A DNA stretch of 64,000 bases, taken from the NCBI GenBank assembly GCA_020639315.1, contig JACKGM010000002.1, positions 286,321-350,320 on the forward strand, given 5' to 3'. Shown piece after piece: positions 5,527-63,664 of this stretch (positions are counted from its first letter, which is position 1; every line of letters starts with the position of its first letter). The stretch is from Candidatus Nomurabacteria bacterium (GTDB taxonomy: Bacteria > Patescibacteriota > Saccharimonadia > JAGOAT01). The notes beneath the pieces are model-generated. The model ran no database searches and was not told the DNA's origin. It saw only the letters and a program-made list of their open reading frames with translations. The position numbers and the translations under genes are program-made.

Positions 5527-5537
5527 TCGTATATTCC

Positions 5538-9989: not shown

Positions 9990-10150
9990 AACCCTGTTGC
10001 CATATAAACTTGCGAGGTCAAAGCTGATGATTTTTATTCCAGACTAGCAAAACATGACAAAGCATAACAGGAGTTACGCTGCGAAGTGTTTTGCTAGTCT
10101 GGGGCAAAAATGGCACTTTTGAAGCCGTGAGGTTATATGGCAACAGGGTT
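9990..10150. mobile_element. MITE-B copy (161 bp)
   Basis: 17-bp perfect TIRs AACCCTGTTGCCATATA / TATATGGCAACAGGGTT. Inner inverted repeat CCAGACTAGCAAAACA. Flanked by ATT/ATT 3-bp direct repeats (9987-9989, 10151-10153). Confidence 0.85.
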
Positions 10151-10200
10151 ATTGTCATCCTCCGAACTTCAGAGAACTTACAGGTATCCAGAGCATTGTC

Positions 10201-11419: not shown

Positions 11420-11482
11420 TTCGGGGTCAGACCCCGAACTCGACCTTGCTAACAGATATAAATCGTCGGGGTCTGACCCCGA
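11420..11482. repeat. REPIN-like doublet R1
   Basis: TCGGGGTCAGACCCCGA, spacer with AACAGATATAAA, then TCGGGGTCTGACCCCGA. Differs by 1 nt from R2. Confidence 0.85.
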
Positions 11483-11537
11483 CTTGTATTTTTTTTAGAC
11501 ACCATGGCCTACTCTTGTAACTACTCTTGTAATCTAC

Positions 11538-12138: not shown

Positions 12139-12200
12139 TCGGGGTCTGACCCCGAACTCGACCTTGCTAACAGATATAAATCGTCGGGGTCTGACCCCGA
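12139..12200. repeat. REPIN-like doublet R2
   Basis: Same architecture and near-identical sequence to R1 and R3. Lies ~130 nt upstream of the RAYT-like gene. Confidence 0.85.
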
Positions 12201-12328
12201 CTTGTATAGATTGAAGACTATTATACTTGCAAAATTACTGGGTTTGAGCAACAATGTAACTAACTTTAGTGTTAGACTCAACGATTACTGACTATCGTTG
12301 TCTCTGTAAAATATAATCAATACTAACT

Positions 12329-13026: not shown

Positions 13027-13110
13027 CCTGACTTCGTGACTTCGGGGTCTGACCCCGAACTCGACCTTGCTAACAGATATAAATCGTCGGGGTCTGACCC
13101 CGAAGTCAGG
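13027..13110. repeat. REPIN-like doublet R3 (extended outer stem)
   Basis: Core as in R1/R2, with an additional complementary CCTGACTTCG (13027-13036) / CGAAGTCAGG (13101-13110). Sits between convergent gene ends. Confidence 0.85.
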
Positions 13111-13112
13111 AT

Positions 13113-13421
13113 TTAGTAGTAGATTTTTATCCGACCTGTGATCACTACGATTAGTACTATTAGACCAAGGAATCTACGCCACAAGTTGACCCCGTAGCGA
13201 ATCTCCAAATAAGCCCAATAAATCAAGCTAATGTCTCTAATTAGCCCCAAATAATAACTGATAGAAAAGCGACTAAGTATCAGGCTCGCTAGTCCAAAAT
13301 AAAACCAAATCTTCAAGGGCAGATTAGCAGGTTGGGCGACTACAATCCTACCCTGACTATCCCTAAAGCATTTATCTACCAGGAAATTTTTACATTTACT
13401 AATCAACTGATTTGATTTCAT
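13113..13421 (-). CDS. small membrane protein (hypothetical)
   Basis: Hydrophobic segments present. The likely start is MKSNQL (13421), because the track start at 13478 overlaps the upstream giant gene by 41 nt. Confidence 0.4.
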   Translation of the reverse strand: MKSNQLISKCKNFLVDKCFRDSQGRIVVAQPANLPLKIWFYFGLASLILSRFSISYYLGLIRDISLIYWAYLEIRYGVNLWRRFLGLIVLIVVITGRIKIYY

Positions 13422-16400: not shown

Positions 16401-19400
16401 CTACCATGCCTCCGGTCGAGAAATCACTAGTACTACTAGCAAAATCGATATTGGTATATACCCCGAGGTCAGTTACCACCGGAGCTACCCCGACTACAAA
16501 CTCAATACTGTCGCTATTGTTGACTGCATTGGTATCAACTTGATCGAATCCATTGATCTGAGCAAGGTTATTGATTGTAGTACCACTAGCAGCACCAATG
16601 GTAGTGGTTACTAAGATTGTCTTAGTCTGATTGACAGCTAGCGTACCTAGATTCCAAGTCGTACCATTGTAGCTACCATCCCCTTGTGTACCGACTAGGG
16701 TTAGTCCGGCTGGCAGAGGATCGTTGACTGATACCCCTGTAGCATTCAAAGGACCTTGATTGGTCACTTCTAGCTTGTAAACCAATTGGTTACCAGAGTT
16801 GTAGCCAGAATTGGCAGTATCAAAAGTCTTATTGATCGAGAGATCGGTGACTTCACTGGCATTGTTTAATACTGTGTAGACACTGTCATAATTGTTACTG
16901 AGGTTGGTATCAGTTTGGTGCATACTCAGAATGTCAGAGATATTTACTACTACGCCACTACTGAGATCAACCCTGACTAATAGATTGAGTGTTGCGGTAC
17001 TACCTGTACCCAAAGAACCCAAATCCCAGACTCCTGTTGCTTGATCATAGCTACCATAGCCATTGGTATTAGCAGACACAAAGCTTGTGCCGTTTGGAAC
17101 TGCGTCTCGGACTATTACCATACTAGCAGGGTTAGAGCCTTGATTGGTCACATCTATTACATATTGAATTTGATCATTTTGACTGTATGGTCCAGGTGTC
17201 GATGCACTAATCGACTTATTGAGTACCAAATCAGTCGCAAGAATCGTGACTGGAGTATTAACCAGATCAACATTATCGCTATAGGTATTACCGAGCTCAC
17301 TTTCTGTCTCGACTAGGACCTGATTAGCCACTTCTGGAGCAGCTGCTTCATCCACTAGTACCTTGAATTCGAGTGGCTCAAGTGCCTGACCCTCTAGGAC
17401 TGGATAATTCTGATAGGTACATTCGATATCTTGACCGGTCACTAGACAGCTCCAGTTGGTCGAGCTAACCCAGCTATCAAAGCTCAGACCAGGATCGAGG
17501 CTATCAGTCACTACAATTGGTGAGGTAGCCAAGACCTGACCGACTGGACTACCTGGGGAGCTAGTATTATTACTGACTTGAATCCTATAAGTACCCAAAC
17601 TATTTTCGACGAAGCTACCGACTGCAGTCTTTTCTACTGCTAGATCAGGCCTAATCAGATCGACAGTGAATGATACGGTATCTGTATTGTTAGCTTGATT
17701 GGTGTCAAGCTGATCAGCTGACTGAATAGTCGCAGTGTTGTCTATCTGTCCATCCTGAGCTACAGTGGCCTGAATAGTCAAGGTAGCGCTAGAATTAGCA
17801 GCAATACTAGGTATAGTCCAAGTACTGCCACTGTAGCTACCACTAGAAGCAGTAACATTAGTAACATTTAACTCCGAGGGAACAACATCTTCTACTACAA
17901 TATTGCTAGCATTGAAGTCGGTCGGGTTTGTCACGGTTATTTGGTATTCGATGGTACTACCGAATTCGATTGGGTTGTCAGCTGATGAGACTTGCTTATC
18001 TAGGCTAAGATCAAGATCGACCATCATCCCGAAATCAACTGTCTGATTGTAGTTGCTGACCCAGCCACCGGTACTGGCGGTCTCAGAACCGTAGGCTAGA
18101 TTAACCCTACCGGATACTACACCGTAAACTCCATTGGTACCATCATCATTATTGTCAGTATTGTCTAGATAAGTAACTGGTTCATATGGTCCAGTCAAAG
18201 CATTGGTTCCACTAGTACTTGTATAGCCTTCTAGTGGCTGACCAGCAGCGAACTGACTAGTCGGAATCAAGACAAAGTAATTGCCATTGGCCAAATAGTC
18301 TATTTTGTAGTTCCCTGACGGATCAGCTGTAGCAGTGTCGATAAATATATCTGTATTTGGATCAAAAGTACTATTACCATCATCTAACCACAACTCAACC
18401 CCTACTCCACCAATACCATTATCTCCAGCATCAAATAGACCATTGTAATTATTGTCTGCGAAGACTGCACTACCGATTGAATTGTAACGAACTTGGGCGG
18501 AAACGGAGTCGGAATTGTTGCCAGTATTGGCTGCTATTTCATCTACACTTGATACACTAGCCGTGTTGTTGAGAGTCGGTGCCGCACTGCGATTGATAGT
18601 GTAGCCAAAACTGATCGTCGGTAAGCTAGCACCAGGAGCTAGATTGGATCCACCAGTGTAAATACAGGTCAAATTGTTAACCCCGACCCCAGGTACGACA
18701 TTACAGCTCCAACCTGCTGGGCTAATCGGTAGATTGAGAGTAAGTGAATCTGGAATCGCATCGGTCACAGTGATCGCTGCTCCATTGTCAAAAAAGCCAG
18801 TCGAGCTAGCCGCATTGCTCACTACAATACTGTAGGTACCGATTTGACCAACTTGAGGGTTGGCACTAGCGGTCTTGTCAATCGTCAAATCACAAGGTAC
18901 TGAATAGTTGACAGTCTGGACCTCACTGCCGTCACTGGCAGTGGGGGTTAGGACGAAACCAGCTACAGTTGGGTTATTAGTTGTTTCAGCATCGATACTT
19001 ATAAAATTAAGTAAAGTTAGAGCTCCTGTAGTGTTATCTATCGAGAACAACAGTAATCTTCTATCTAAACCTAGAGGGGCTTGTACATTAGTTGCTAGTA
19101 GTCTTGTCCCATCAGGTGAAATAACCAAGGAATGAAGGTAACCACCTCCGTAGTAAACTGCACTAGTTCGAACAGGAGCAGTAGGATCCGTCATGTCGTA
19201 TAGGTAAATTCTTACCCCATCATAGTCATTGCCAGCGATAGAGTCGTCTGTCTTAAATGCTGCATATGCAAAATTTCCTACCTTACTATAGGCAACATTA
19301 CCGTACTTCCTTACGGTAGTTTCTGAGTAAACTAAGGTATGAGGTAATGTTGCGTTAACCGAATAGTGCTCAAATGTATTATCGTTGATATATGGGCCAT

Positions 19401-20235
19401 CGGTTGCAACAAAATATGTACTGCTAGGACTAATCCACTGTTCGGGTACCATATCAATTGGAACATTTGCCCACCCTGTAAAAGCCTGTACATACAACGG
19501 GGATGTAGGTGCTGCAGGGTTTGAAATATCGTATGAGACAATCTCAGTATCACTGATTAGGTATAGTAATTTACCATCATCACTAAAGCTTGAGTAACGA
19601 ATTGGGCTAGTAATCAATGCTCCAGGATTAACTGTGGCAACTGTTGTCTCGCTAATTAGGTCAATCACTTTTACATCCTTAACAGTCTCCTCTACGCTAT
19701 AACTATACCTACCAGTTGGATCTGTGCCCAACTGTTGCCAAGAAAATGTTGAAGTCGCTACCACGGTCTTTGTTCCAGTGAAACTTAATCCATCTGGTGA
19801 TAATTCGGCAATACCTGTATTACCACGACCAAATAAAGCTTTCTCCTCAAGCTCAACCGCCACTATACTATGATCCCCACAGACCATCTGGCTAGGACTT
19901 AGGGTATAGCTCCAATTACCAGTCGTGCCATCTGATTTGGTACTATATTCAAACTGTGGTCCAGCTGCGTTGGCTAAGTAATCGAGGGGGTTTGTAGTGT
20001 AATCTGTATCGAGGTAAAGGCGAATATAAGCATTGGGATGAGTGGCAGTACCAGTGATAGTCTGAGAGGTCAGATTACCACCATTGGTCGGACTAGTAAC
20101 CCCAGGCGATGCACTTGTATTGGCCACTTGGAAAAAATTACCGAAGCTAATTATTCCAGCAACTACTATTAGCCCGATCGTAATCAGACTAGTTAGCTTC
20201 TCCTTGCTTCTTTTTATACTTTTGATCTTGATCAC
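13438..20235 (-). CDS. giant LPXTG-anchored surface protein (2265 aa): N-terminal signal/TM, beta-propeller-like region, ~10 DUF11/CARDB-like repeats, ~25 Asp-rich thrombospondin type-3-like Ca-binding repeats
   Basis: Repeats are read in the translation (e.g. DTDGDGVPDYVE...GTDPNDPDDFL many times). The C-terminus reads LPKTGAG, a hydrophobic helix, then KSRQ, which is a sortase signal. Confidence 0.85.
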   Translation of the reverse strand: MIKIKSIKRSKEKLTSLITIGLIVVAGIISFGNFFQVANTSASPGVTSPTNGGNLTSQTITGTATHPNAYIRLYLDTDYTTNPLDYLANAAGPQFEYSTKSDGTTGNWSYTLSPSQMVCGDHSIVAVELEEKALFGRGNTGIAELSPDGLSFTGTKTVVATSTFSWQQLGTDPTGRYSYSVEETVKDVKVIDLISETTVATVNPGALITSPIRYSSFSDDGKLLYLISDTEIVSYDISNPAAPTSPLYVQAFTGWANVPIDMVPEQWISPSSTYFVATDGPYINDNTFEHYSVNATLPHTLVYSETTVRKYGNVAYSKVGNFAYAAFKTDDSIAGNDYDGVRIYLYDMTDPTAPVRTSAVYYGGGYLHSLVISPDGTRLLATNVQAPLGLDRRLLLFSIDNTTGALTLLNFISIDAETTNNPTVAGFVLTPTASDGSEVQTVNYSVPCDLTIDKTASANPQVGQIGTYSIVVSNAASSTGFFDNGAAITVTDAIPDSLTLNLPISPAGWSCNVVPGVGVNNLTCIYTGGSNLAPGASLPTISFGYTINRSAAPTLNNTASVSSVDEIAANTGNNSDSVSAQVRYNSIGSAVFADNNYNGLFDAGDNGIGGVGVELWLDDGNSTFDPNTDIFIDTATADPSGNYKIDYLANGNYFVLIPTSQFAAGQPLEGYTSTSGTNALTGPYEPVTYLDNTDNNDDGTNGVYGVVSGRVNLAYGSETASTGGWVSNYNQTVDFGMMVDLDLSLDKQVSSADNPIEFGSTIEYQITVTNPTDFNASNIVVEDVVPSELNVTNVTASSGSYSGSTWTIPSIAANSSATLTIQATVAQDGQIDNTATIQSADQLDTNQANNTDTVSFTVDLIRPDLAVEKTAVGSFVENSLGTYRIQVSNNTSSPGSPVGQVLATSPIVVTDSLDPGLSFDSWVSSTNWSCLVTGQDIECTYQNYPVLEGQALEPLEFKVLVDEAAAPEVANQVLVETESELGNTYSDNVDLVNTPVTILATDLVLNKSISASTPGPYSQNDQIQYVIDVTNQGSNPASMVIVRDAVPNGTSFVSANTNGYGSYDQATGVWDLGSLGTGSTATLNLLVRVDLSSGVVVNISDILSMHQTDTNLSNNYDSVYTVLNNASEVTDLSINKTFDTANSGYNSGNQLVYKLEVTNQGPLNATGVSVNDPLPAGLTLVGTQGDGSYNGTTWNLGTLAVNQTKTILVTTTIGAASGTTINNLAQINGFDQVDTNAVNNSDSIEFVVGVAPVVTDLGVYTNIDFASSTSDFSTGGMVVYIVNLENYGDQTANNIVVSDLLPAGLSFVSATPDTGSYNQATGDWSVSSLAAYSNTQLRITATINASLGQAVDNYGEITAVATNLVDPNSANDNDTIQFTVGTTPVLTDVAVIKNIDYPNSGAELATSQIITYQVVATNQTTQSATNLTIIDQLPAGLSFVSATTSSGSYDPVTGQWQFASLAANGQESLVITATINASLNSQLDNLAYLDSLDQIDIDYSNDSDGASFTVGVEPMLTDIAVFKTIDFDNSGFNQNDSLTYQIIVDNLGSIGATGLMINDDLPSGVSFVSANPSVGSYDSATGIWQIPSLASAATATLDITVNIDAANGQEVINSASLLGFDQDDNNYLNDNDLIAFTTGVVPVVTDLEVTKVIDDQDIRSNLQEGGQVVYKIVVNNIGDNDATSIVIKDSLPTGLTVADIQVTDGSFDQGSLTWSIPSLVTSAQAELILVADIGVNAGQFLTNYGYLDTIEQIDVGFRNNYDYVDFQVIEATDTDGDGVPDYVELQQGTDPNDPDDFLDTDGDGVPNYIEEQEGTDPYDSISYPDSDGDGVPDYVEIIDGTDPNNPDSFVDSDGDGVPDYVELQQGTDPNDPDDFLDTDGDGVPDYVEETEGTDPSDSNDFLDSDNDGISDYQELVDGTDPYNPNDPGDGPDTDGDGVPDSIEIQEGTDPNDPDDFLDTDGDGVPDYVEIQEGTNPNDPNDFLDSDQDGVPNSIEVVAGTNPYDSSSYPDNDGDEVPDYVEVSEGTDPSDPDDFLDTDGDGVPDYVEIQEGTDPSDPDSYPDTDGDLVPDYVEEEQGTDPSDPTDFLDTDGDGVPDYVEEQNGTNPDDPDDFVDENNNGIPDYQEGIDTDGDGVPDVVEQEQGTDPNDPDDFLDTDGDGVPDYVENQQGTDPNDPDDYLDTDGDGVPDYVEEQNGTNPTDSKSFVDKDGNGVPDYLEAKDSLIDKVKQLPKTGAGILTIILVAVAIASLVWLIGLKSRQEDYSKN

Positions 20236-24547: not shown

Positions 24548-24612
24548 TGCGGGGTCTGACCCCGCACTTGACCCTTTTAACAGATATAAACTTGCGGGGT
24601 CTGACCCCGCAA
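24548..24612. repeat. REPIN-like doublet R4
   Basis: TTGCGGGGTCTGACCCCGCA...AACAGATATAAA...TTGCGGGGTCTGACCCCGCAA. The outer stem bases changed in a compensatory way relative to the other copies. Confidence 0.85.
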
Positions 24613-24625
24613 TGGGTTTTTTGGA

Positions 24626-25651
24626 TCAATCTTCGCTAGAGTTTTGAGGCAATAAAGCTCGAGAATTACCGATCTGGATAGCTAGCTTATCATGATCTTT
24701 GATTGATGACTCAAAAGCTCGCTGAGCGTTACCAAGGTGCTTCCCTGTCAACTGTAAATTGTCCCCGAGCTTACCTGACTGCGTAGCAATTGCCGAAATC
24801 GAAGCAATAATCTGCTTGGCCTTCTCTTCTATCTTCTCTCCCTCCATAGCTAGTAGTACCGTTTGCAAAAAATAATAAAATGAGTTTGGTGACACCATAA
24901 ATACTCTCTGGTCCACCCCATATTGCTGCAAATCAGTATCACTCAAAATATGATAATAAATGTTTTCACTGGGAATATACATCATGGCAAAATCAACAGT
25001 CCCCTCATCAGGTAGGATATACTTTTTGGATATTGAACGGATATGCACTTTGACGTCTTTAGCAAAATCTTTCAAGCTCTGCCCCGAATCTCCAGAATCA
25101 GCCTTCATAGCCTTAGTAAAGTTTTCCAAAGGAAATTTGCTATCAATCGGGATTAATCCATTCTTGGTCCTGATCACTGCATCGACTTTGACCCCCGAAC
25201 GAAATCCGTATTGCAAACTAAAGCTCCTCAAGGGCAACATTTGCGTCAAAAGGTCTTTCATCACCTGCTCACCAATATTACCTCGCAGCTTTGGTGACCT
25301 CAAGAAGTCTTGCAATTCCTTCATATTGCGACCAATCTCACTAAACTTGCCGACTTCTCTACTCAGATCCGAGTAAGCTTTAGCAGCATTGTTAAGCCGA
25401 TCTTGCATTTGACGCTGATTATCTGCTATCGAACGGTTGATATTGTCCAAATCAGCCTTCAATAGATTGACGGTACTATCATTTCTAATCTGTTCTCTTA
25501 ATACCTCGATTGACTTGGATTGAAAAATCATCTGCCTCAACACCAACCCAACTATCCCGATCAAAACCACAATCAAGGCCAATACCAAAATCTCCATCTG
25601 CTTATTATAAATCATAAGCATTATTCCCCCAAATATTAACCCTGTTGCCAT
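24626..25651 (-). CDS. rmuC: DNA recombination protein RmuC
   Basis: N-terminal TM, coiled coil and C-terminal RmuC-type domain (AMMYIPSENIYY, VSPNSFYYFL). The first 14 nt of the track ORF lie inside the MITE-B TIR, so the true start is probably an internal Met (25621 to 25597). Confidence 0.8.
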   Translation of the reverse strand: MATGLIFGGIMLMIYNKQMEILVLALIVVLIGIVGLVLRQMIFQSKSIEVLREQIRNDSTVNLLKADLDNINRSIADNQRQMQDRLNNAAKAYSDLSREVGKFSEIGRNMKELQDFLRSPKLRGNIGEQVMKDLLTQMLPLRSFSLQYGFRSGVKVDAVIRTKNGLIPIDSKFPLENFTKAMKADSGDSGQSLKDFAKDVKVHIRSISKKYILPDEGTVDFAMMYIPSENIYYHILSDTDLQQYGVDQRVFMVSPNSFYYFLQTVLLAMEGEKIEEKAKQIIASISAIATQSGKLGDNLQLTGKHLGNAQRAFESSIKDHDKLAIQIGNSRALLPQNSSED

Positions 25652-25798
25652 ATAACCTCACGGCTTCAAAACTGCCATTTTTGCCCCAGACTAGCAAAAC
25701 ACTTCGCAGCGTAACTCCTGTTGTGCTTTGTCGTGTTTTGCTAGTCTGGAATAAAAATCATCAGCTTTGACCTCGCAAGTTTATATGGCAACAGGGTT
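25638..25798. mobile_element. MITE-B copy (161 bp, reverse orientation) between divergent rmuC and tyrS
   Basis: Same TIRs as the other copies. ATT/ATT TSD at 25635-25637 and 25799-25801. Confidence 0.85.
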
Positions 25799-25838
25799 AT
25801 TGAAAGAAACCTCATCAGATGATAAGCTTATATCAGAT

Positions 25839-27845: not shown

Positions 27846-27900
27846 ACTATAGTCTATTTTACCCCAAACATTCCAGCCTGAAAATAGCCCTATAGCCGCC

Positions 27901-27952
27901 TATAGCAAGCTCAAAACAAAACCGGACAATTTGAGCTGTACTATAGAGAACT
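27901..27952. mobile_element. truncated MITE-A (left ~50 bp only)
   Basis: TATAGCAAGCTCAAAACAAAACCGGACAATTTGAGCTGTACTATAGAGAACT is identical to the left arm of full copies, after which similarity is lost. Confidence 0.7.
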
Positions 27953-28063
27953 ATAGCCCCCGTAAAACAAAACCTGTTTGTTTTGGGTGATTAGATTATC
28001 GATCTAGAATTGTCGGATGCAAAAATCCTATTTATATCATGCTATAATTGCTATAATAAAATC

Positions 28064-29591: not shown

Positions 29592-29655
29592 TTCGGGGTC
29601 TGACCCCGAACCCGACCTATATAACAGATATAAATGGTCGGGGTCTGACCCCGAA
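29592..29655. repeat. REPIN-like doublet R5
   Basis: TTCGGGGTCTGACCCCGAA...AACAGATATAAA...TCGGGGTCTGACCCCGAAG. Confidence 0.85.
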
Positions 29656-29737
29656 GTAGGGGTTTTGGGGTGTTGCCAAAAGAAGAGAAAAAGATGATTT
29701 TAGCTTCAAATTACGCTATAATAGTCTAGGCATCTAT

Positions 29738-31414: not shown

Positions 31415-31502
31415 AATCTAATATAGAGTATATATGAGATTATATTAGATTACAAGAGATTAACGCCAAAAAAACTTGATTAATCTACAAATGGAACTAA
31501 GA

Positions 31503-31686
31503 TATAGCAAGCTCAAAACAAAATCCAATTCCCTGACTAAGATAATAGAGAACCAGTAGTTGAGTTCTTCTACTGAATCATATCCATGATATGGTGAAGG
31601 AGAAAACTCAGTCTAATGGACTCTAGTGTCTAGTCAGGAATTGTGATTGATAGAAATATCTGATTTTGTTTTTAACTTGCTGTATA
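31503..31686. mobile_element. MITE-A subfamily-2 copy (184 bp), uninterrupted
   Basis: Ends are TATAGCAAGCTCAAAACAAAATC and GATTTTGTTTTTAACTTGCTGTATA. Collinear with the 50071-50419 copy except for the MITE-B insertion there. Confidence 0.8.
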
Positions 31687-43138: not shown

Positions 43139-43359
43139 GTGTCTAAGCCCATGCTCTAAACTATACTACTCTAGTCTAGAACCTTTACAACCTGGTCTTA
43201 AGGTATCAAAAGACTGCAATCGCCAAATCATTACAGATACTACTGTGGAGCAACCAAGGCCTATAACCAGAAACGCTACCTTAATAGATAGAGATAACTA
43301 CTAAATCTAATGGCTAAAGGAATAATATATCTAATGACATCAGCGGTATCGGGCTTGGT

Positions 43360-43523
43360 TATAGCAAGTTAAAAACAAAACCAGCCTTTTGACCCAACTC
43401 TAGAGTCTATAAAGCTAGTTTTCTTACTCACCATATCTATGGATATGGCTCTTAAGAAGAACTACCTTTCTAGTTCTCTATAGTACAGCTCAAATTGTCC
43501 GGTTTTGTTTTTAACTTGCTATA
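43360..43523. mobile_element. MITE-A copy (164 bp, reverse orientation)
   Basis: Reverse complement is ~95% identical by eye to 9673-9836. It directly abuts REPIN R6. Confidence 0.8.
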
Positions 43524-43524
43524 C

Positions 43525-43589
43525 TTTCGGGGTCAGACCCCGTCATTTTATATCTGTTGGAAGGGTTCAGTACGGGGTCTGACCCCGAA
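43525..43589. repeat. REPIN-like doublet R6 (reverse orientation)
   Basis: TTCGGGGTCAGACCCCGTC...TTTATATCTGTT...TACGGGGTCTGACCCCGAA. Confidence 0.85.
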
Positions 43590-44262: not shown

Positions 44263-44759
44263 TTTGATACCAACCCTTTGCCAGACCTAAGATAATGACA
44301 GCTATATCCACCTGGGTTCTTCTGCAGATAATCCTGATGATATGCTTCAGCCGGATAGAAAGTACTCAGTGGCTCTATACTGGTCTGGACTGGATCTGAA
44401 TAAAGCTTCGAGTCATTGACTAGCCTGATCATGCTCTCGGCAGCTTGCCTCTCTGATTCACTAGTATAAAAAATCGCCGAACGGTAACTTGTCCCTATAT
44501 CATTACCCTGTTGATTCTTAGTCGTAGGATCATGAATTCGAAAAAAATAGTCAAGCAGCTGATCCCTACTAATCAGACTTGGATCGTATTTGATCCTGAC
44601 AGCCTCGGCGTGACCTGGATGATTGTGATAATCTGGATCTTTGTTTTGTCCGCCAGTATAACCGACTTCGGTATCGACTACCCCTGGCTGATGACGAATC
44701 AAATCCTCTAGACCCCAAAAACAGCCTCCCGCCAAGACCAGCTCCTCAGACTTGATCAT
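44259..44759 (-). CDS. msrA: peptide-methionine (S)-S-oxide reductase
   Basis: [12 protein letters not shown] active-site motif, [17 protein letters not shown]. Confidence 0.9.
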
Positions 44760-45136
44760 CTCTTCTCTGCCCTCGGATCAAAATCAAGCGCCAATGAATT
44801 GATACAGTAACGCCTGCCAGTAGTTTCTTTGGGCCCATCAGTAAAGACATGCCCCAAGTGACCTCCGCAGTTAGCACAAGTCACCTCTGTCCTAATCATC
44901 CCATGTGAGTCATCAATAATTTCCTTGACCGCACCTTCGACTGCCTGGTCAAAGCTTGGCCACCCAGATCCAGAATCAAATTTTGTATCAGAATTAAACA
45001 AAATTGCACCACAGCCAGCACAATGATAGCTACCATCAGCCTTATTGTTGAGTAATTTCCCACTAAATGGCGCCTCTGTCTCTTTATCCAGCAAGATAGC
45101 CTTTTGCTTGGCACTCAATTTGGGTTTACCTATCAT
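44756..45136 (-). CDS. msrB: peptide-methionine (R)-S-oxide reductase
   Basis: CAGCG...GWPSF...[12 protein letters not shown]...RYCINS. Confidence 0.9.
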
Positions 45137-45291: not shown

Positions 45292-47124
45292 ATGAAAAAA
45301 ATTATCAATTTTAGCAAAGAATACCCATTTGTAGCTGGAGTGATGATCATCATTATACTGGCAATCATCCTAGACCTGGCCGGCCTGACTAGTCAGTCAG
45401 ATCTGCTACTGGGTAGCTTTTCAATCCTCATGGCATTGCGCCTCAGTACTGATATGTTAAAAACTCTGAAGGAAGGACGCTATGGGATAGATATCCTAGC
45501 AGTCGTAGCTATCATTAGCACCGTAGCAGTCGGCGAATACTGGGCATCTATTGTGATAGTTTTGATGCTGACAGGTGGTGAAGCTCTAGAAGACTATGCC
45601 TCAGGTCGGGCCCAAAGAGAGCTCAACGCTCTGCTCGATAGGGCCCCAAAAACTGCCCATTTGGTGACCGGTGACAAATTCAAGACTGTAGCACTTTCTA
45701 CAATCAAGCCTGGAGATATTCTACTGGTCAAGCCAGGTGAAGTCATCCCGGTCGATGCCATACTACTTGATCAATCAGCAGAATTCGATGAATCTTCATT
45801 GACTGGTGAGAGTCTGCCGGTCGAGCATCATCAGGGAGAAGCGCTCCTCAGTGGTTCAATCAATGGCGGAGAGGCAATCCGAATCGAGGCACTTAGATCA
45901 TCAGACCAGAGCCAGTACCAGCAAATCATTGAGTTGGTCAAATCTGCGACTGGCACTGAAGCACCCTTCGTCCGTCTAGCCGATCGTTACGCTGTACCTT
46001 TCACCCTGATTTCATTTACTATCGCTGGTATCGCCTGGATCAGCTCAGGCGAAGCACTTAGGTTTGCTCAAGTCTTAGTAGTAGCTACACCCTGCCCTCT
46101 CTTGCTTGGAGCACCGATTGCCCTAGTCTCTGGTATGAGTCGAGCTGCCAAGCATGGGATTATTGTCAAAAGTGGCTCAATCTTAGAGCGTCTGGCTACT
46201 ATCAAGAGCGTAGCTTTTGATAAAACTGGCACCTTGACTAGTGGTGAGCCAGTAGTCAGCTTGGTCAACCCTCAGCCAGGATTTAAGGATCAAGACATCT
46301 TACTCTATGCTGCTAGCGCCGAACAACAATCTGCTCATATTCTAGCCCGAGCACTAGTCAGCGAAGCCATCAATCAGAAGCTGGCTCTTGTCTCACCCAA
46401 GAAGCTTCAAGAGACTACTGCTTATGGCGTATCGGCTACGATCGAGGGCAAAAAGATCCTAGTCGGCAAACATAGCTTCCTCACCAGTAACCAAGTCGAT
46501 CTATCCGATCGGCAAATTAGTCAGGCTGGTGAGACTATTGTCTATGTAGCGATTGATCAACAATTCGCTGGTACGATTGCTTTCCGGGATCAAGTCCGAC
46601 CCGAAACCAAACAAACTTTAGCTAATCTCAAGTCCCTTGGCATCAACAGTACCTTGATGCTGACTGGTGACAACCAGGCTACTGCCAGACGGATTGCTAA
46701 AGAGATCGGGATTGTTGATTTCCAAGCTGACTGCCTGCCGATTGACAAAGTCAATGCGATCAAAAATGCTCCGATTCGTCCAATCATGATGGTTGGTGAT
46801 GGTGTCAATGATGCACCCGTGCTAGCGTCCGCCGATGTTGGCCTAGCAATGGGAGCGCGTGGCTCGACTGCAGCCAGCGAAACTGCTGATGTCGTAGTCC
46901 TAGTCGATGACTTGTCCAGAAGCTACCAAGCAATCCAGATAGCCAAAGATACTATGCAAATCGCGACCCAGAGTATTTGGATCGGTATTGCTATCAGCGT
47001 AGGGTTGATGTTGATCGCTTCTACCGGCGTTCTGCCAGCCGTGGTGGGTGCTGGACTCCAAGAAGTAGTTGATGTCGTGGTGATGATCAATGCCTTGAGA
47101 GCCCATGGCTCATGGCGTAGTTAG
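45292..47124 (+). CDS. P1B-type heavy-metal-translocating ATPase (no N-terminal HMA domain; TPCP transmembrane motif)
   Basis: LTGESLPV, ATPCPLLLGAP, DKTGTLT and GDGVNDAP. AAGGAG SD upstream. Confidence 0.9.
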   Translation: MKKIINFSKEYPFVAGVMIIIILAIILDLAGLTSQSDLLLGSFSILMALRLSTDMLKTLKEGRYGIDILAVVAIISTVAVGEYWASIVIVLMLTGGEALEDYASGRAQRELNALLDRAPKTAHLVTGDKFKTVALSTIKPGDILLVKPGEVIPVDAILLDQSAEFDESSLTGESLPVEHHQGEALLSGSINGGEAIRIEALRSSDQSQYQQIIELVKSATGTEAPFVRLADRYAVPFTLISFTIAGIAWISSGEALRFAQVLVVATPCPLLLGAPIALVSGMSRAAKHGIIVKSGSILERLATIKSVAFDKTGTLTSGEPVVSLVNPQPGFKDQDILLYAASAEQQSAHILARALVSEAINQKLALVSPKKLQETTAYGVSATIEGKKILVGKHSFLTSNQVDLSDRQISQAGETIVYVAIDQQFAGTIAFRDQVRPETKQTLANLKSLGINSTLMLTGDNQATARRIAKEIGIVDFQADCLPIDKVNAIKNAPIRPIMMVGDGVNDAPVLASADVGLAMGARGSTAASETADVVVLVDDLSRSYQAIQIAKDTMQIATQSIWIGIAISVGLMLIASTGVLPAVVGAGLQEVVDVVVMINALRAHGSWRS

Positions 47125-47159
47125 GTTATGCTATAATTTAGTTAATTATTAGGAGGACT

Positions 47160-48200
47160 ATGCAAAAAATCATTCCCAATCTCTGGTTTGATCGTAACGC
47201 TCGCCAGGCGGTCGAGTATTATAAGTCAATTTTTGACGACTTAGCATTGACAGGATCCAGCCAATATCCCAAAAGCAAAGATCAACTCGACTTACGCAAA
47301 ACCTCGGATACTCCAGGCTTGCCTTCCGAAGATTCAGAAATTCTTTTATCTGATGGAAGCGATGCTGATGCATCGGTGACAGCAGAAAAAGTAGTTCTGG
47401 ACTTCGGAGGCGATCCTGGGGATGCAGGGATTTTGAGTAAGTCGAGTCAAAGTCTCGCAGATTTTCAGACTGACTTGGCCGGCCAAGACCTGACTATCAG
47501 TATTTCGATCTATGGTTATGACTTCACCTTGATCAACGCCGGGCCAGAATTCAAAGCTACTCCCTCCAACTCCTTCATGATCTATTTCAACCCAACCAAA
47601 CCTGGACAATCCAAACAAGACCTGACCAAAATCGCCAACCGTCTACTCGAAAAGGGAACTGCCCTGATGCCCCTTCAGGAGTATGACTTTAGTCCTTGGT
47701 TTGCTTGGATAGAAGACAAATACGGATTCAGCTGGCAATTAATCTTAATCGAACCCCAAGACCCCGAATATCCTCGAATCGTACCTGCTTGGATGTTTGG
47801 TGGACCAGTTCAAAATCAAGCAAAATCAGCGTCGAGTTACTATCAATCTGTATTCAAGCATTCTAGTCGGGGCCTAGAGTTCAGCTATCCGAAGGCTACT
47901 GGCCCTGCCCAGGCAGGCTCAATCATGTACTCTGACTTCAAGCTAGAAAACCAATGGTTTGCTGCTAATGATGCAGGGGTAAACCAAGATTTTAGCTTTA
48001 CAGAAGCTGTGTCTTATCAGATTAACTGTGCCGATCAAGCAGAGATTGATTATTATTGGTCCAAACTATCTAATGACCCAGCTAGTGAGCAGTGTGGCTG
48101 GTGCAAGGACCGATATGGCATATCCTGGCAAATCGTACCCGCTAATATCGAAAAGTTGATGAATCAGAAAAAAATCATTATTGACCAGTATGAACAGTGA
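47160..48200 (+). CDS. tandem PhnB-like/VOC-fold (3-demethylubiquinone-9 3-methyltransferase-domain, PF06983-like) protein carrying an in-frame MITE-C insertion
   Basis: Two domains: MQKIIPNLWFDRNARQAVEYYKSIF...FSWQLIL and RIVPAWMFGG...CGWCKDRYGISWQIVP. An extra ~55 aa sits in domain 1, encoded by 47285-47449. Confidence 0.65.
   Translation: MQKIIPNLWFDRNARQAVEYYKSIFDDLALTGSSQYPKSKDQLDLRKTSDTPGLPSEDSEILLSDGSDADASVTAEKVVLDFGGDPGDAGILSKSSQSLADFQTDLAGQDLTISISIYGYDFTLINAGPEFKATPSNSFMIYFNPTKPGQSKQDLTKIANRLLEKGTALMPLQEYDFSPWFAWIEDKYGFSWQLILIEPQDPEYPRIVPAWMFGGPVQNQAKSASSYYQSVFKHSSRGLEFSYPKATGPAQAGSIMYSDFKLENQWFAANDAGVNQDFSFTEAVSYQINCADQAEIDYYWSKLSNDPASEQCGWCKDRYGISWQIVPANIEKLMNQKKIIIDQYEQ
47285..47447. 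mobile_element. MITE-C full-length copy (163 bp palindrome) inside a CDS
   Basis: TIRs are ACTCGACTTACGCAAAACC and GATTTTGAGTAAGTCGAGT. The arms are ~70% complementary. CA/CA flanks are present. Element plus 2-bp duplication is 165 nt, or 55 codons. Confidence 0.7.
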
Positions 48201-48537
48201 TACCAAGGTAGCACCTGCACCAAGCGGTGATGGCTGCAAAGAATGCCTAGCGATGGATGGATGGTGGCTTCATTTGCGTCGTTGTCTGGCATGCGGGCAG
48301 ATTGGATGCTGTGACAGCTCACCTAGTCAGCACGCAAGAGGACATTGGCAAGAGTCGGGACATAGGCAGATCATGAGCTATGAACCCGGAGAGTCCTGGT
48401 ACTATGACTGGGAGGACAATACGATGATTGATCTGCCAGACATCACCATCACTCCTCCTTTACACCATCCCCTATCTCAACCTGCACCTGGACCCGCAGG
48501 CAAAGTACCCGATGACTGGGAATACCTACTTAATTAG
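48181..48537 (+). CDS. UBP-type zinc-finger domain protein
   Basis: CKEC...HLRRCLACGQIGCCDSSPSQHARGHWQESGH is the Cys/His pattern of zf-UBP. Confidence 0.65.
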   Translation: MTSMNSDTKVAPAPSGDGCKECLAMDGWWLHLRRCLACGQIGCCDSSPSQHARGHWQESGHRQIMSYEPGESWYYDWEDNTMIDLPDITITPPLHHPLSQPAPGPAGKVPDDWEYLLN

Positions 48538-48745: not shown

Positions 48746-49826
48746 CCTAGATTCTATTTCCAAATGCAACCTTAGCTAAGTCTAACTCACTATTAGGGTT
48801 AGAAGCAAGCCAATCGTAAACCTCTTGAGGTGTATGCCACCCTAGTCTTTTTCTAGGCTTGTTATTAAGCTCCCAGGCTATATCATCTAGCTCTTGTTGG
48901 GTTAGTCCCCTAATATCACTACGCTTAGGGAGATACGCCCTAAGTTGTCCGTTGATATTCTCGTTAGCTCCTCTCTGCCAAGAGCTATATGGATCAGCAA
49001 AGTATACCTCTATACCAATAGCTTCTGTGATTCTCTCGTGTTTAGTGAACTCAGTACCATTATCAAAGGTGATGGTATGGGCAACAAGACCTCTAAGCCC
49101 GTCTATTACTGCATTGGCTGTCTCCTCTGCTGTCTTACGGTCTAGTTTAGTAAATACTACTAAACTACTAATTCTCTCGTTTACAGTGTTAATAGCTTGT
49201 TTATGTAGGTATAAGACACTATCACCCTCCCAATCTCCTAGTCTGGTTCTTTGATTTACAACTTCTGGTCTTTTATGGATAGATACTCGATTTGGTATCT
49301 TAGACCTATGAGATGACCTACCTTGATTCTTGGTTCTCTTTTTCTTGCCTTGTCTAAGATATTGATAGAGCTTTTCCTCTTTAGCCCAAGAGCTAGTATA
49401 TATCCAGTTATAGATAGTTTCAGCAGAGACTGATGGGTGTCCTTCTTTCTTTAATCTACCTGAGATAGTTACTGGATTCCAGCCCTTCTGTAGGCAGTCT
49501 ACTACTCGACTGCGTAAACGATGATTAACTGGGTTATCTAAGATTGGTATCTGTCTAGATTCTTGTCGGTTCTCTTCATAGCTAGATTGAGCTATCCAGG
49601 TATGATAGATACCTTTACCATCAAGCCCTCTTTTGATCTCTCTACCTATAGTAGATTTATCTTTACCAATTCGCTTTGCTATTTGATTATTTGTATAATT
49701 GTCTTGGAGTAAGACTTCTATCTTACCCCGTTCTGCAGCCGTTAGGTGACTCATGCAATCCTTTCGTTTAATTGTATGTATTATTCTAACGGTTGCATTT
49801 GATATTGGAACTATGGGATCGCCATA
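48746..49826 (-). mobile_element. IS30-family insertion sequence (1081 bp)
   Basis: Imperfect 26-bp IRs (CCTAGATTCTATTTCCAAATGCAACC and GGTTGCATTTGATATTGGAACTATGG, 18/26). 3-bp TSD GAT at 48743-48745 and 49827-49829. Confidence 0.85.
48747..49754 (-). CDS. IS30-family DDE transposase
   Basis: N-terminal HTH (LTAAERGKIEVLL..NNQIAKRIGKDKSTIGREI), DWEGD, TFDNGTEF, YFADPYSSWQRGANEN. The start is placed at MSHL (49754). The track start at 49862 lies outside the IS. Confidence 0.9.
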   Translation of the reverse strand: MSHLTAAERGKIEVLLQDNYTNNQIAKRIGKDKSTIGREIKRGLDGKGIYHTWIAQSSYEENRQESRQIPILDNPVNHRLRSRVVDCLQKGWNPVTISGRLKKEGHPSVSAETIYNWIYTSSWAKEEKLYQYLRQGKKKRTKNQGRSSHRSKIPNRVSIHKRPEVVNQRTRLGDWEGDSVLYLHKQAINTVNERISSLVVFTKLDRKTAEETANAVIDGLRGLVAHTITFDNGTEFTKHERITEAIGIEVYFADPYSSWQRGANENINGQLRAYLPKRSDIRGLTQQELDDIAWELNNKPRKRLGWHTPQEVYDWLASNPNSELDLAKVAFGNRI

Positions 49827-50062
49827 TAATTTTTCTGATTCATAAGAGCAATAATTGGCCACCGACCAGGCTGCTTCATACTACTACTCTGATAGTCCAT
49901 CATCCCATACCCGAGGCCTACTCCTCCACCCATACCTTTGTAGATTGTCGGTTGACAATCCGGTGCATATTGCCGAATCAAAGCATCTACCTTACGCAAG
50001 TCAGACTCTCGCTCTCCAGTCTTGGCAAAGTATTCTTCGGCAGTCTTAGCTTCAATTTTCAT
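49827..50062 (-). pseudogene. N-terminal fragment of the IS30-split DUF1801 gene
   Basis: MKIEAKTAEEYFAKTGERESDLRKVDALIRQYAP...WPIIALMNQKNYMA. Joins in frame to the fragment at 48745. Confidence 0.75.
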
Positions 50063-50070
50063 TGTTATAT

Positions 50071-50419
50071 TATACAGCAAGTTAAAAACAAAATCAGATA
50101 TTTCTATTAATCACAATAACCCTGTTGCCATATAACCTCACGGCTTCAAAACTGCCATTTTTGCCCCAGACTAGCAAAACACTTCGCAGCGTAACTCCTG
50201 TTATGCTTTGTCGTGTTTTGGTATTCTGGAATAAAAAATCATCAGCTTTGACCTCGCAAGTTTATATGGCAACAGGGTTAATTCCTGACTAGACTCTAGA
50301 GTCCATTAGACTGAGTTTTCTCCTTCACCATATCATGGATATGATTCAGTAGAAGAACTCAACTACTGGTTCTCTATTATCTTAGTCAGGGAATTGGATT
50401 TTGTTTTGAGCTTGCTATA
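50071..50419. mobile_element. MITE-A subfamily-2 copy (reverse) carrying a nested MITE-B
   Basis: Collinear with the reverse complement of 31503-31686, except for a 162-bp insertion plus 3-bp duplication. Confidence 0.85.
50118..50279. mobile_element. MITE-B copy (162 bp) nested in MITE-A
   Basis: Same TIRs as the other copies. AAT/AAT TSD at 50115-50117 and 50280-50282. The uninterrupted target CACAATTCCTG is seen in the 31503 copy. Confidence 0.9.
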
Positions 50420-53419: not shown

Positions 53420-53485
53420 CTTCGGGGTCTGACCCCGAAACAGGTACTGCCAACAGATATAAATCGACGGGGTCTGACCCCGAAG
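53420..53485. repeat. REPIN-like doublet R7
   Basis: CTTCGGGGTCTGACCCCGAAA...AACAGATATAAA...GACGGGGTCTGACCCCGAAG. Confidence 0.85.
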
Positions 53486-53556
53486 TGACGAGATAAGATT
53501 TGCTCTTTATATAGAACTCTAGCAAAAGTATACGGAAGTCCGATATAATACCCACC

Positions 53557-53936: not shown

Positions 53937-54560
53937 ATGGAATGCAGTAATACTGAACCCACTTTAGAAGCCAAGATTCAACAAGGTCGTGAACTTATTA
54001 TTCAAGCTCCTCAATTATTTATATCAGTGGACATAGAGGCAGACGGAATTGCTGGTCGGGGTTCTATCCTAGAAATAGCCGGAGTAAGCCCGGATGGTCA
54101 ATCTATATTTTCCAGCTTAGTATTTCCAAAAAATCAATTGTTTATTCCTGAGTATCAGCAATTCTGCGATAATCATGGTCTTAGCAGGGATCAGCTCAGA
54201 GATGCACCAAGATCCCCTGTAGTCATACGAGAATTTGCTGACTGGGTTGAATCGCTTTGTAAAATGTATCAAAAAGAAGCCGTTTTTACTGGATTTAATG
54301 CTGGATATGATAAAGCACTATTTGATCTCTACTGTATAGAGCTAGGAATACAAAACCCCTTTGTCACCTCACCTCTAGATATCAAAAGTATGGTCTTTGG
54401 ATTATTGGGTTCTCCATGGGGCTGGGATGCAACAAAAAAATCATCTTTGCCCGATAATCTAAAGCCGGAAAGAAAATTTAGCCACCAGGCCCTTGATGAT
54501 GCAAAGTACCAGCTTGAAATACTGTGCCTAATCGCATATGAATCCACAAACCTTAACTAA
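53937..54560 (+). CDS. DEDDh-type 3'-5' exonuclease (DnaQ-like)
   Basis: ISVDIEADG (Exo I) and HQALDDAKY (Exo III). Confidence 0.6.
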   Translation: MECSNTEPTLEAKIQQGRELIIQAPQLFISVDIEADGIAGRGSILEIAGVSPDGQSIFSSLVFPKNQLFIPEYQQFCDNHGLSRDQLRDAPRSPVVIREFADWVESLCKMYQKEAVFTGFNAGYDKALFDLYCIELGIQNPFVTSPLDIKSMVFGLLGSPWGWDATKKSSLPDNLKPERKFSHQALDDAKYQLEILCLIAYESTNLN

Positions 54561-54629: not shown

Positions 54630-54724
54630 ACTCGACTTACGTAAAATCCCTGAACTCCCAGACTCACCTCCAGCGTCCAGAACTCCTTTTTTAAGCTGTC
54701 ACCGAGGTTTTGCATAAGTCGAGT
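54630..54724. mobile_element. MITE-C short derivative (95 bp)
   Basis: TIRs are ACTCGACTTACGTAAAATC and GGTTTTGCATAAGTCGAGT. Its reverse complement aligns to both ends of the 47285 copy, with the central ~68 bp missing. Confidence 0.65.
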
Positions 54725-55027: not shown

Positions 55028-55876
55028 CTAAAGCTTTTCAAAGAAGAAATTGTTGGTCTCCAGCCAACCCTCTAGATTGCCACAATCTAGGTGCTTACCC
55101 TGACTGATATATGGTATCAATTTTTTGTCTTTTGCAAATTGGAGCATTGGTATAGTAAAAAAGTATTCTCCTTGCTCGGTCTTATTTTCAGCAAGCTGTT
55201 CACTGGTATATTCAAAGATTCGATCGTCAAAGATATACCGCCCAAGATTGATCAGATTGGAAGGAGCCTGACCTGACTCTGGCTTCTCTACTACCTGGTC
55301 AATGTAGCTTTGACCGTCCTGCTCTCGCAAGCCAAATACACCATACCGATAGAGCTGATCATCTGGTCTTTTTTGGGTAACCACCAACCCATCTGCCTCA
55401 CTATCATAGAAATAGTCAAGCATTTCTTTGATGTCATTATTGGGATGATAAACATAATCATCACCCATGACCATCAAGAAATACTTGTTACCAATCTGAT
55501 CTCTGACTAGCTCAAAAGGAATAGAAGTACCATGAGGTGCCTCTGGCCTGACATCCTGCTCAATAAAATGCAGATTGACCGATTGGTAAAACTCTTCATA
55601 TCGAGCCAATCGGTCCAGTTTACCATGCGCCTGCAAAAAGCCATTGATCTCTGGATTTGGACTAAAGTGACGCTTAATCTGATCATTGCCCTGAGCCACA
55701 ATAATATAAATATCTTTAATCCCAGCCCCTATCATATCTTCGATAATATATTCGATTACCGGACGATTGAGTATAGGTAACATTGGCTTGGCGATAGTTT
55801 TGGTCACTGGCAAAAACCTTGAGCCATAACCTGCGGCCGCAATTACCCCCTTGGTCACTACCCTAGACTTTGCCAT
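55028..55876 (-). CDS. UTP-glucose-1-phosphate uridylyltransferase-like sugar nucleotidyltransferase
   Basis: GVIAAAGYGSRFLPVTKTIAKPMLPILNRPVIEY, the GalU-type N-terminal motif. Confidence 0.8.
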   Translation of the reverse strand: MAKSRVVTKGVIAAAGYGSRFLPVTKTIAKPMLPILNRPVIEYIIEDMIGAGIKDIYIIVAQGNDQIKRHFSPNPEINGFLQAHGKLDRLARYEEFYQSVNLHFIEQDVRPEAPHGTSIPFELVRDQIGNKYFLMVMGDDYVYHPNNDIKEMLDYFYDSEADGLVVTQKRPDDQLYRYGVFGLREQDGQSYIDQVVEKPESGQAPSNLINLGRYIFDDRIFEYTSEQLAENKTEQGEYFFTIPMLQFAKDKKLIPYISQGKHLDCGNLEGWLETNNFFFEKL

Positions 55877-56505: not shown

Positions 56506-56570
56506 CTTCGGGGTCAGACCCCGTCAATTTATATCTGTTAGCAACCCCTGGTTCGGGGTCAGACCCCGTC
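56506..56570. repeat. REPIN-like doublet R8 (reverse orientation)
   Basis: CTTCGGGGTCAGACCCCGTC...TTTATATCTGTT...TTCGGGGTCAGACCCCGTCAG. Confidence 0.85.
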
Positions 56571-56661
56571 AGTACCTGAGAATGATTTGAGCTTATGCTT
56601 GCAAGTAATAACCAACAGTGATATATAAATGATTAAGACTATTATGAGCTAAGGGGTACAT

Positions 56662-58688: not shown

Positions 58689-58727
58689 CCCAGTATTTGA
58701 ATTGAAGTATTCAGAGAATGGCAGACC

Positions 58728-58888
58728 TATAGCAAGCTCAAAGCAAAACCGGACAATTTGAGCTGTACTATAGAGAACTAGAAAGGTAGTTCTTCTTAAG
58801 AGCCATATCCATAGATATGGTGAGTAAGAAAACTAGCTTTATAGACTCTAGAGTTGGGTCAAAAGTCTGGTTTTGGTTTTAACTTGCT
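58728..58888. mobile_element. MITE-A copy
   Basis: Near-identical to 9673-9836. Confidence 0.8.
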
Positions 58889-58940
58889 ATGGGATCAAGA
58901 ATTTATTTGCGACACAAGACAAAGTGTTAGTTCAATAAAA

Positions 58941-63451: not shown

Positions 63452-63664
63452 GCTCCTTATTATAACAGAGCAAAGCAGCAGAGACTGTCAACTCTATTAG
63501 ACTTGTTCCCCAATAAGGTTTCTGGCACCATATAGCAAGTTAAAAACAAAATCAGATTTCTAGATTCTAGCAAACATTAGGGCTATTTGATTAGTCTAAT
63601 ATGGTTACTCTGGGTGGTGAGTAAATATGAAATCTAATATGCAAAAATGCTTTTTAGCGATCTG

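Follow-up and report, generated by a model that had tools for sequence, protein, structure and literature searches.

The 64,000-nucleotide stretch analyzed here, referred to as the window, comes from an assembly of a Candidatus Nomurabacteria bacterium (GCA_020639315.1, contig JACKGM010000002.1, positions 286,321 to 350,320 of the forward strand) that GTDB places in the Saccharimonadia. At 47285-47447 on the + strand it carries a 163-bp palindromic sequence of the miniature inverted-repeat transposable element (MITE) type, situated inside a gene for a tandem two-domain protein of the VOC superfamily (47160-48200, + strand, 346 aa). The segment is a mobile, palindromic, non-autonomous element that duplicated 2 bp of its target and contributes 55 codons without a stop, and members of its family have done the same repeatedly in other genes. 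We regard the in-frame insertion of a MITE into the VOC gene as nearly certain. The explanation as a whole, in which a MITE is read through in frame and belongs to a family resembling the Rickettsia palindromic elements (RPEs), is in our judgment very probable.

The element and its insertion site in the VOC gene

The VOC gene appears intact apart from the element, with an AGGAGG at 47152-47157 upstream of its ATG. The 346-aa protein matches PF06983, the '3-demethylubiquinone-9 3-methyltransferase' or PhnB-like domain of the VOC superfamily, with an E value of 4.8e-55, and its relatives of solved structure are PhnB-like proteins (3OMS, 1U7I, 1U69 and 1TSJ). The Pfam match is split into three stretches. 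The second domain (residues 207-326) is covered by a single unbroken stretch, and residues 43-97 in the first domain are derived from the element. The initial annotation, which was made from the letters of the window, had placed the element within domain 1 of a tandem PhnB-like/VOC protein and had pointed out that the second domain lacks the segment, and both statements agree with the domain matches.

The left terminal inverted repeat, ACTCGACTTACGCAAAACC, occupies 47285-47303 on the + strand. The right one is found at 47429-47447 on the - strand, where it reads ACTCGACTTACTCAAAATC with two mismatches to the left end; the right-end sequence of the 163-bp element is GATTTTGAGTAAGTCGAGT, the inverted repeat of ACTCGACTTACGCAAAACC. 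On the + strand the ACTCGACTTACGCAAAACCTCG-type end of this copy is the 5' one. A CA dinucleotide borders the copy on either side, the left CA at 47283-47284 being preceded by T and the right CA at 47448-47449 being followed by A, and the insertion flanks read gatCA/ACTCG...CGAGT/CAaag with slashes at the element borders. The 163 bp of the element and the 2 bp of the duplication add up to the 165 nt, or 55 codons, gained by the gene, and there is no stop in the host frame. The peptides across the two host/element junctions (47284/47285 and 47449/47450) are YPKSKDQLDLRK and ILSKSSQSLADFQ, and the element itself is translated in its frame +1 as LDLRKTS...GILSKSS. The duplication, the gain of 55 codons, the open frame and the peptide quoted in the initial annotation are all as it gave them. 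The 55-residue insert is hydrophilic and acidic. The element carries no transposase gene. Apart from the frames for a 54-aa peptide, which is of low complexity and lacks a start codon, it has no long open frame.

The 165-nt stretch folds into one long hairpin of -89.7 kcal/mol, compared with -45.0 ± 3.7 kcal/mol in shuffled sequences (z = -12). The outer arms of 40 nt are 75% complementary, close to the approximately 70% estimated before. When up to three mismatches are allowed, the ACTCGACTTACGCAAAACC motif occurs four times in the window as compared with 0.00 times expected from shuffles. Two of the four occurrences delimit a second, shorter copy of 95 bp at 54630-54724 (+ strand), which lies between open reading frames (ORFs) at 53937-54560 and 55028-55876. 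This copy is in the opposite orientation, with its AAAATCCCTG-type end at the 5' side, and it consists of about 72 nt of one arm joined to the opposite end, about 68 bp having been deleted internally. It has no intact duplication (AG/AA). It is an intergenic deletion derivative of the same family, as first proposed.

Is the segment an insertion, or is it part of the native coding sequence? The exact 346-aa protein is present in NCBI as 'VOC family protein [Candidatus Saccharibacteria bacterium]', and among the matches listed the 55 residues are absent from the next 119 homologues (292-315 aa). In an alignment of 16 sequences the insert appears as one clean block between YPKSKD and QSLADFQ, and all 82 columns that are invariant across the 16 sequences are retained in the VOC protein. 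When 47285-47449 is removed in silico, the frame is kept and the resulting sequence, YPKSKDQSLADFQ, fits the consensus YPxSKEEGLADFQ without a gap. Related copies are found in other contexts. A copy 92.6% identical is intergenic on a contig from another sample, and a second one lies within a murI gene (JAGQMQ010000069.1 of assembly GCA_020428505.1), where 143 of the 163 positions (88%) are identical to the window copy. The segment is an insertion and not native sequence because the homologues lack it, because its excision restores the consensus and because related copies stand elsewhere; the earlier identification of the segment as a repeat is thereby upheld.

Copies elsewhere and in-frame insertions in other genes

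The end pattern ACTCGACTTAYKYAAAAYCYCKG was scanned as an exact match in bacterial and archaeal genomes, one genome per species, and in metagenomes. The genomes gave 13 loci, all of them in seven metagenome-assembled genomes of Saccharimonadales/Saccharibacteria, and the metagenomes gave 24, making 37 loci in total. Wherever the organism is named, the family is confined to the Saccharimonadales (Saccharibacteria). Pairing of the ends resulted in 34 elements at 24 distinct sites, and most of these are exactly 163 bp long. Three elements at two distinct sites measure 161 bp, shorter derivatives recur at 106-107, 95, 75 and 60 bp, and one copy of 325 bp (locus L017, 3971-4295) is enlarged by an unrelated MITE nested within it. 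The two ends of an element are of different types, one being ...AAAACCTCG and the other ...AAAATCCCTG. Most of the listed copies are intergenic. Intergenic copies are routinely called in public databases as hypothetical proteins of 59-94 aa owing to their open frame, and these calls are probably annotation artefacts.

A perfect 2-bp direct repeat borders the element at 11 of the 24 distinct sites, and the repeated dinucleotide varies (CA, AA, GA, CT, TA, AC, TT and AT). At these 11 sites the left repeat is preceded by T in ten cases and the right repeat is followed by A in all cases. Since the element starts with A and ends with T, this TNNA context allows a second, equivalent description, in which the element measures 161 bp and the duplication is the 4-bp TNNA. 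By either description 165 nt are added.

A scan of viral contigs gave one copy, an ordinary intergenic one (locus L043, 6937-7099, IMG/VR contig 3300025582_000056). Judging from the translations, this copy lies just downstream of a reverse-transcriptase-like ORF (5455-6974), and an opposite-strand ORF whose start it overlaps resembles Avd (four-helix bundle), so that the surroundings may be those of a diversity-generating retroelement.

Direct evidence for the gain or loss of the element comes from tsaE. Two TsaE alleles that are at least 96% identical have lengths of 202 and 147 aa, a difference of exactly 55 residues, and they come from two different metagenomes (L040, 226-834, and L041, 167-610). 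In the DNA, the site that holds the element reads CCT AA(163 bp)AA GAAAGAC, and the empty allele is 165 nt shorter at this position. In the MsrB gene of L021 (- strand) the element lies between GEYVDNH and KDGSYACGACG and splits the Pfam SelR match in two. As compared with the window's own MsrB (44759-45136, - strand), the L021 protein shows a block of exactly 55 extra columns. Locus L034 has a copy, with its AT duplication intact, in the gene for a membrane protein of 450 aa. Two further copies, in L004 (ApbE) and L008 (KhpB-like), are N-terminal and in frame with uncertain start codons, and together with the copy upstream of radA in L010 they are counted as possible cases only. The 107-bp derivative (L018, L022, L031 and L037) lies in a long open frame and was considered as a further in-frame insertion. 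It was rejected, as the 78 aa upstream of it have a non-coding appearance and 107 + 2 cannot be divided by three.

With HMMER, every sequence of a collection of 1.84 billion representative proteins was compared with a profile of the peptide that the element encodes (E ≤ 0.001). The search gave 154 matches, mostly to ORFs of 50-120 aa, which we read as gene calls on intergenic copies. About 30 of the 154 are larger proteins, from about 170 aa upward, in which the profile is matched once over its full length. Genuine Pfam domains were found in all ten of the larger proteins that were scanned: RuvX, an Asp/Glu racemase (MurI), a class IV aminotransferase, two group-1 glycosyltransferases, an AAA_18 kinase-like protein, TsaE, FemAB, a sortase and a chorismate-binding enzyme. 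In RuvX the domain was matched in two stretches with the insert between them. Those of the proteins that are named in NCBI belong to Candidatus Saccharibacteria. A peptide-profile search of a word-indexed database returned 13 small ORFs and missed the window's own protein, and is uninformative on how frequent genic copies are.

Three of these cases deserve mention. Assembly GCA_020428505.1 holds both the VOC and the murI inserts, and thus at least two genes are interrupted in frame in that assembly. Two glycosyltransferases that are only 45% identical share an insert at an equivalent position, and one of them, P0159 (483 aa; MBI1856913.1), has two element-derived inserts 17 residues apart, its homologue P0149 sharing the site. 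The shared insert suggests either that a working gene has retained it for a long time or that the site is a hot spot. The FemAB protein with an insert (P0179; MBI1856673.1) is encoded on the same 654-kb contig as P0159, in one Saccharibacteria genome. Because in-frame insertion into unrelated genes recurs in this family, the comparison with RPEs made in the initial annotation, an analogy of behavior, is stronger than could be known from the window.

Conserved length, hairpin and open frames

At their ends, taken as 22 bases each, 15 distinct copies of 163 bp are 93% identical on average, and over the 119 internal bases they are 49% identical on average (range 26-97%). Adding the copy in L039 brings the set to 16 copies, which fall into ten lineages at a threshold of 75% internal identity. 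The length of 163 bp is kept exactly in spite of this internal drift.

The hairpin is kept as well. RNAalifold analysis of a 12-copy alignment gave 54 pairs, with 93.4% of the cells being standard pairs. Changes on both sides of a pair were seen in 26 of the 54, as compared with 8-13 when the 3' partners were slid by one to three columns, and none of 500 shuffles reached any of the observed hairpin measures. All 18 copies folded had energies of -63 to -98 kcal/mol on the favored strand.

The same holds for the reading frames. Frame +1 (LDLRKT...GILRKSS) is open in 13 of the 16 copies and frame -1 (LDLRKIP...EVLRKSS) in 15. Both frames are open in 13 copies and in eight of the ten lineages. Permuting the base-pair units within each copy, which preserves composition and palindromy, gave an expectation of 0.45 copies. 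Frame 0 has stops in all listed copies, one of them built into the right end. Frame +2 is nearly always interrupted by stops in the listed copies, though the ends do not block it. As most of these copies are intergenic, the open frames do not simply result from filtering of the copies in genes. The family thus conserves its length, its hairpin and its open frames to a degree beyond chance.

One strand is favored over the other. In 17 of the 18 copies the strand with the AAAACCTCG-type end at its 5' side is the better folder, by 6-21 kcal/mol over its complement, which suggests that the single-stranded form of one specific strand has a role, be it in RNA or as an intermediate of DNA transposition. 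An early pattern, in which the sense strand of the host gene was the more stable strand, was true of the first five genic copies and was given up when the larger set showed both orientations (LDLRKT... and LDLRKIP...). Because both orientations occur in genes, the strand preference is not simply due to selection on host mRNAs.

Explanations, mobilization and known relatives

How would such an element arrive in a gene and leave it readable? Judging from the anatomy of the element, a transposase supplied in trans would recognize the terminal inverted repeats of about 20 bp. Insertion would have occurred at a T/CA/A site in the loop-coding part of VOC domain 1, with duplication of the CA. The host frame runs through the one element frame that is free of stops, so that the gene gains 55 residues and is not broken. 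In this way selfish DNA could persist in a small, gene-dense genome, as about one third of intragenic insertions would be tolerated as surface-loop or terminal extensions. Duplications of 2-4 bp and targets of the TNNA/TNA type are typical of several DDE transposase families, and transposons of the IS5 superfamily and the IS30 family are possible mobilizers. An IS30-family transposase ORF with HTH_38 and an rve integrase core lies at 48747-49862 (- strand), 1.3 kb downstream of the VOC gene. It was considered as the mobilizer and set aside, its surroundings having no inverted repeats that resemble the ends of the 163-bp element.

Several points weigh against the reading of a MITE inserted in frame and shaped for it, or lessen what the data say in its favor. 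A perfect duplication is lacking at 13 of the 24 sites; we assume that the imperfect duplications reflect decay, at roughly the divergence of the ends. Neither the window nor any of the fetched loci yielded a transposase or an autonomous element bounded by these ends, widely spaced end pairs in public collections lying outside the scan, and solitary ends in the fetched loci are partial matches, stand at contig ends or lie beside ordinary genes. With no transposase partner, the transposition mechanism is deduced from the inverted repeats and duplications only. The copies share ancestry, and hence the counts of open frames and of covarying pairs are not counts of independent events. In keeping with the strand preference, G.T wobble cells outnumber A.C cells by 53 to 8 over the full hairpin (30 to 7 if only its interior is counted), with one U.G pair invariant, but the pair set was predicted on the favored strand and this count is biased, whereas the comparison of folding energies is unbiased. 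A contig of a second assembly (JAGQMQ010000003.1 of GCA_020428505.1, ending just before the IS30-family ORF) is base-identical to the window over 4653 bp, insert included and with no sign of a frameshift, yet the two assemblies may share reads, making this a weak resequencing test. The AlphaFold2 model, for which the alignment of homologues was supplied, shows both VOC domains with confidence (most 10-residue blocks have a predicted local distance difference test score, pLDDT, above 90) and places residues 46-97, with a pLDDT below 50, between strand 29-35 and the next helix. As its alignment held no other insert-bearing sequence, low confidence is expected there and proves little. The prediction, made for one protein, keeps the fold and would fit a tolerated disordered loop in VOC domain 1, between secondary-structure elements and perhaps at the surface. 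Finally, with an mRNA hairpin of about -90 kcal/mol, which might be a target for RNase III or an obstacle to ribosomes, the VOC gene, although open, may be impaired.

This last point leads to the most serious alternative, namely that the insertion in effect inactivates the VOC gene, which would be a young pseudogene or silenced by the hairpin, and that the element is an ordinary MITE whose open frame is incidental. The stability of the hairpin and the lack of predicted structure in the insert are what this explanation would lead one to see. The 12 nucleotide differences between the window copy and the 92.6%-identical copy amount to seven amino-acid differences when the two peptides are compared, with no sign of purifying selection on the peptide, and we know of no established function for PhnB-like proteins. 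The gene, on the other hand, is otherwise intact, with its strong AGGAGG and every invariant column kept. The same family sits in frame in murI, tsaE and ruvX, which are normally essential genes. The insert common to the 45%-identical glycosyltransferases implies long retention, and stops have been avoided in specific frames over ten lineages. On balance we consider inactivation unlikely, if far from negligible. To judge from the sequence, the VOC protein is somewhat more probably working than not, and the interrupted proteins of the family are presumably made and functional. That the family has been selected for translatability seems to us a little better than an even bet.

The hairpin and its strand asymmetry could instead reflect a single-strand transposase of the HUH/Y1 type, as in palindromes derived from IS200/IS605 or in REPINs, and not a DDE enzyme. 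Structure conserved more than sequence, one consistently more stable strand and the failure to find a DDE partner would all be in keeping with this. The duplications of 2 bp with variable sequence argue in the other direction, as IS200/IS605 elements are not known to make target duplications. The terminal inverted repeats of about 20 bp are the best-conserved part of the element, and a TnpA(Y1) or RAYT gene was absent among the ORFs read beside the solitary ends. We hold this mode of transposition to be improbable.

Removal of the element after transcription or translation, in the manner of an intron with its hairpin or of a mini-intein, is less probable still. A compensated and strand-asymmetric hairpin would fit a function at the RNA level, and the boundaries are exact. 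However, a scan of 46500-48500 on both strands with Rfam (E ≤ 1) found no structured-RNA or self-splicing intron match, and at 163 nt the element is far below the size of group I and group II introns. Inteins have an N-terminal Cys or Ser and a C-terminal His-Asn followed by Cys, Ser or Thr, and are about 130 aa or more in length. The insert starts with LDLRK and ends with SKSS followed by Q, without an intein nucleophile or HN motif, and its 55 aa are far fewer than those of the smallest mini-inteins. Genic copies in both orientations mean that the mRNA often carries the less stable strand, and the 2-bp duplication fits DNA transposition. Least credible of all, and in our view next to impossible, is that the 55 residues are native lineage-specific coding sequence, as their open frame and hydrophilic character might suggest, with the intergenic look-alikes being gene-derived fragments: all listed homologues lack the segment, its ends are inverted repeats, it is flanked by a duplication and forms a hairpin of 163 nt, the number of unrelated sites with copies exceeds 20, unrelated proteins contain it, both orientations occur, and its presence or absence is polymorphic in tsaE.

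The window holds other repeats. A second MITE-like family has ends of the form TATAGCAAG(C/T)T(C/A)AAAACAAAA... and ...TTTTGTTTT(T/G)A(A/G)CTTGCTATA, and its copies, at 9671-9836, 27899-27953, 31501-31684, 43358-43523, 50072-50419, 58726-58891 and 63530-63566, all appear to be intergenic. Two of them are 98% identical (9673-9835 and 58728-58890), and the element nested in the L017 copy (3971-4295) of the 163-bp family is a relative. A third palindromic family of about 165 bp (TAACCCTGTTGCCATATAAC ... GTTTATATGGCAACAGGGTTA) is found at 9986-10151, 25634-25799 and 50114-50280, the last copy being nested in the TATAGCAAG-type element at 50072-50419. Doublets resembling repetitive extragenic palindromic (REP) sequences or REPINs consist of two GC-rich palindromes (TCGGGGTCTGACCCCGA) and a conserved spacer with AACAGATATAAA. 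They are present in at least six copies in the 64 kb, the list of positions being 11421-11500, 12139-12218, 13042-13121, 24549-24628, 29593-29672, 53422-53501, 43526-43558 and 56507-56584. Among the genes, an ORF of 2265 aa at 13438-20235 (- strand) contains about ten tandem repeats of 78 bp (26 aa) at 13604-14968 with 62-70% identity and probably encodes a large surface protein. A small zf-UBP (PF02148) protein is encoded at 48181-48537 (+ strand) by an ORF that starts with TTG and shares 20 nt with the end of the VOC gene; the zf-UBP domain is mostly known from eukaryotic ubiquitin hydrolases.

The closest parallel in behavior is found in Rickettsia. In the summaries given by two papers (PMC10969869, PMC1779305), RPE-1 to RPE-10 (Ogata et al. 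2000, 2002) are described as repeats of about 100-150 bp in intergenic and coding sequence, many of them in frame in unrelated housekeeping genes, encoding peptides and judged compatible with the fold of the host protein. Like the family described here, RPEs have no known associated transposase and reside in obligate symbionts or parasites with reduced genomes. The present family likewise has its hairpin, of 163 bp, and in-frame copies in at least ten genes verified by Pfam, and its insert in the VOC protein is predicted to be a disordered loop. The two differ in their hosts, which are Patescibacteria/Saccharibacteria here and Alphaproteobacteria in the case of RPEs. They also differ in that the present family has clear inverted-repeat ends of about 20 bp and a 2-bp (or TNNA) duplication, which RPEs are not known to have and which give it the look of a classical MITE. 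An interior far more divergent than the ends, abundant compensatory changes and the strand bias set it further apart. Its behavior appears to match that of RPEs on every feature tested, and the family may be regarded as formally a MITE that behaves like an RPE, the likeness being one of behavior.

In-frame fusions of MITEs have been called 'not unusual' in a 2024 review, with RPEs as the extreme case and the same speculated for other prokaryotes, and the MITEs known to fuse in frame include intragenic ERIC, large BOX, QMITE1 of Coxiella, and the Anabaena elements MITEb and MITEe (PMC10969869). The present family shares with these its small size, its non-autonomous nature, its inverted repeats and ORFs that can be fused to host ORFs. 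Unlike in those elements, where fusions are occasional, a length that with the duplication included is divisible by three, and stop-free frames in both orientations, are conserved across ten diverged lineages, and insertions internal to a domain are frequent among the database matches. REPs are 20-40 bp and extragenic and are not known to have target duplications. The family has in common with REPs and REPINs that it consists of short palindromic repeats of conserved structure, and it differs from the REP/REPIN-RAYT system in its 163-bp length, its duplications and its location inside genes. Among the papers searched, none was found to link MITEs with Saccharibacteria or Patescibacteria, in line with the first impression that in-frame palindromic insertion is not a described feature of genomes of the Candidate Phyla Radiation (CPR) type. 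What we describe is a new RPE-like family in a new phylum, and the kind of element is already known. The sequence statements of the initial annotation were all correct, and its interpretation is supported.

Palindromes that encode protein in frame have so far been regarded as nearly a peculiarity of Rickettsia. A second, apparently unrelated family would make a pattern of it, namely that selfish DNA in the small, gene-dense genomes of symbionts can evolve translatability. We incline, by a narrow margin, to the view that the family has been shaped by selection to live in coding sequence, as an RPE strategy arrived at convergently and independently in another lineage of reduced-genome symbionts, which have little intergenic space. 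The family provides material for such a question: tsaE is available both with and without the element, the glycosyltransferases share inserts that are ancient, and those of VOC and murI are recent. Blocks of 55 residues will surface as unexplained insertions in alignments and structure predictions of CPR proteins, and if the explanation given here is true, some of the lineage-specific 'extra loops' in these proteins, as in MurI, TsaE and RuvX, are domesticated or tolerated selfish DNA.

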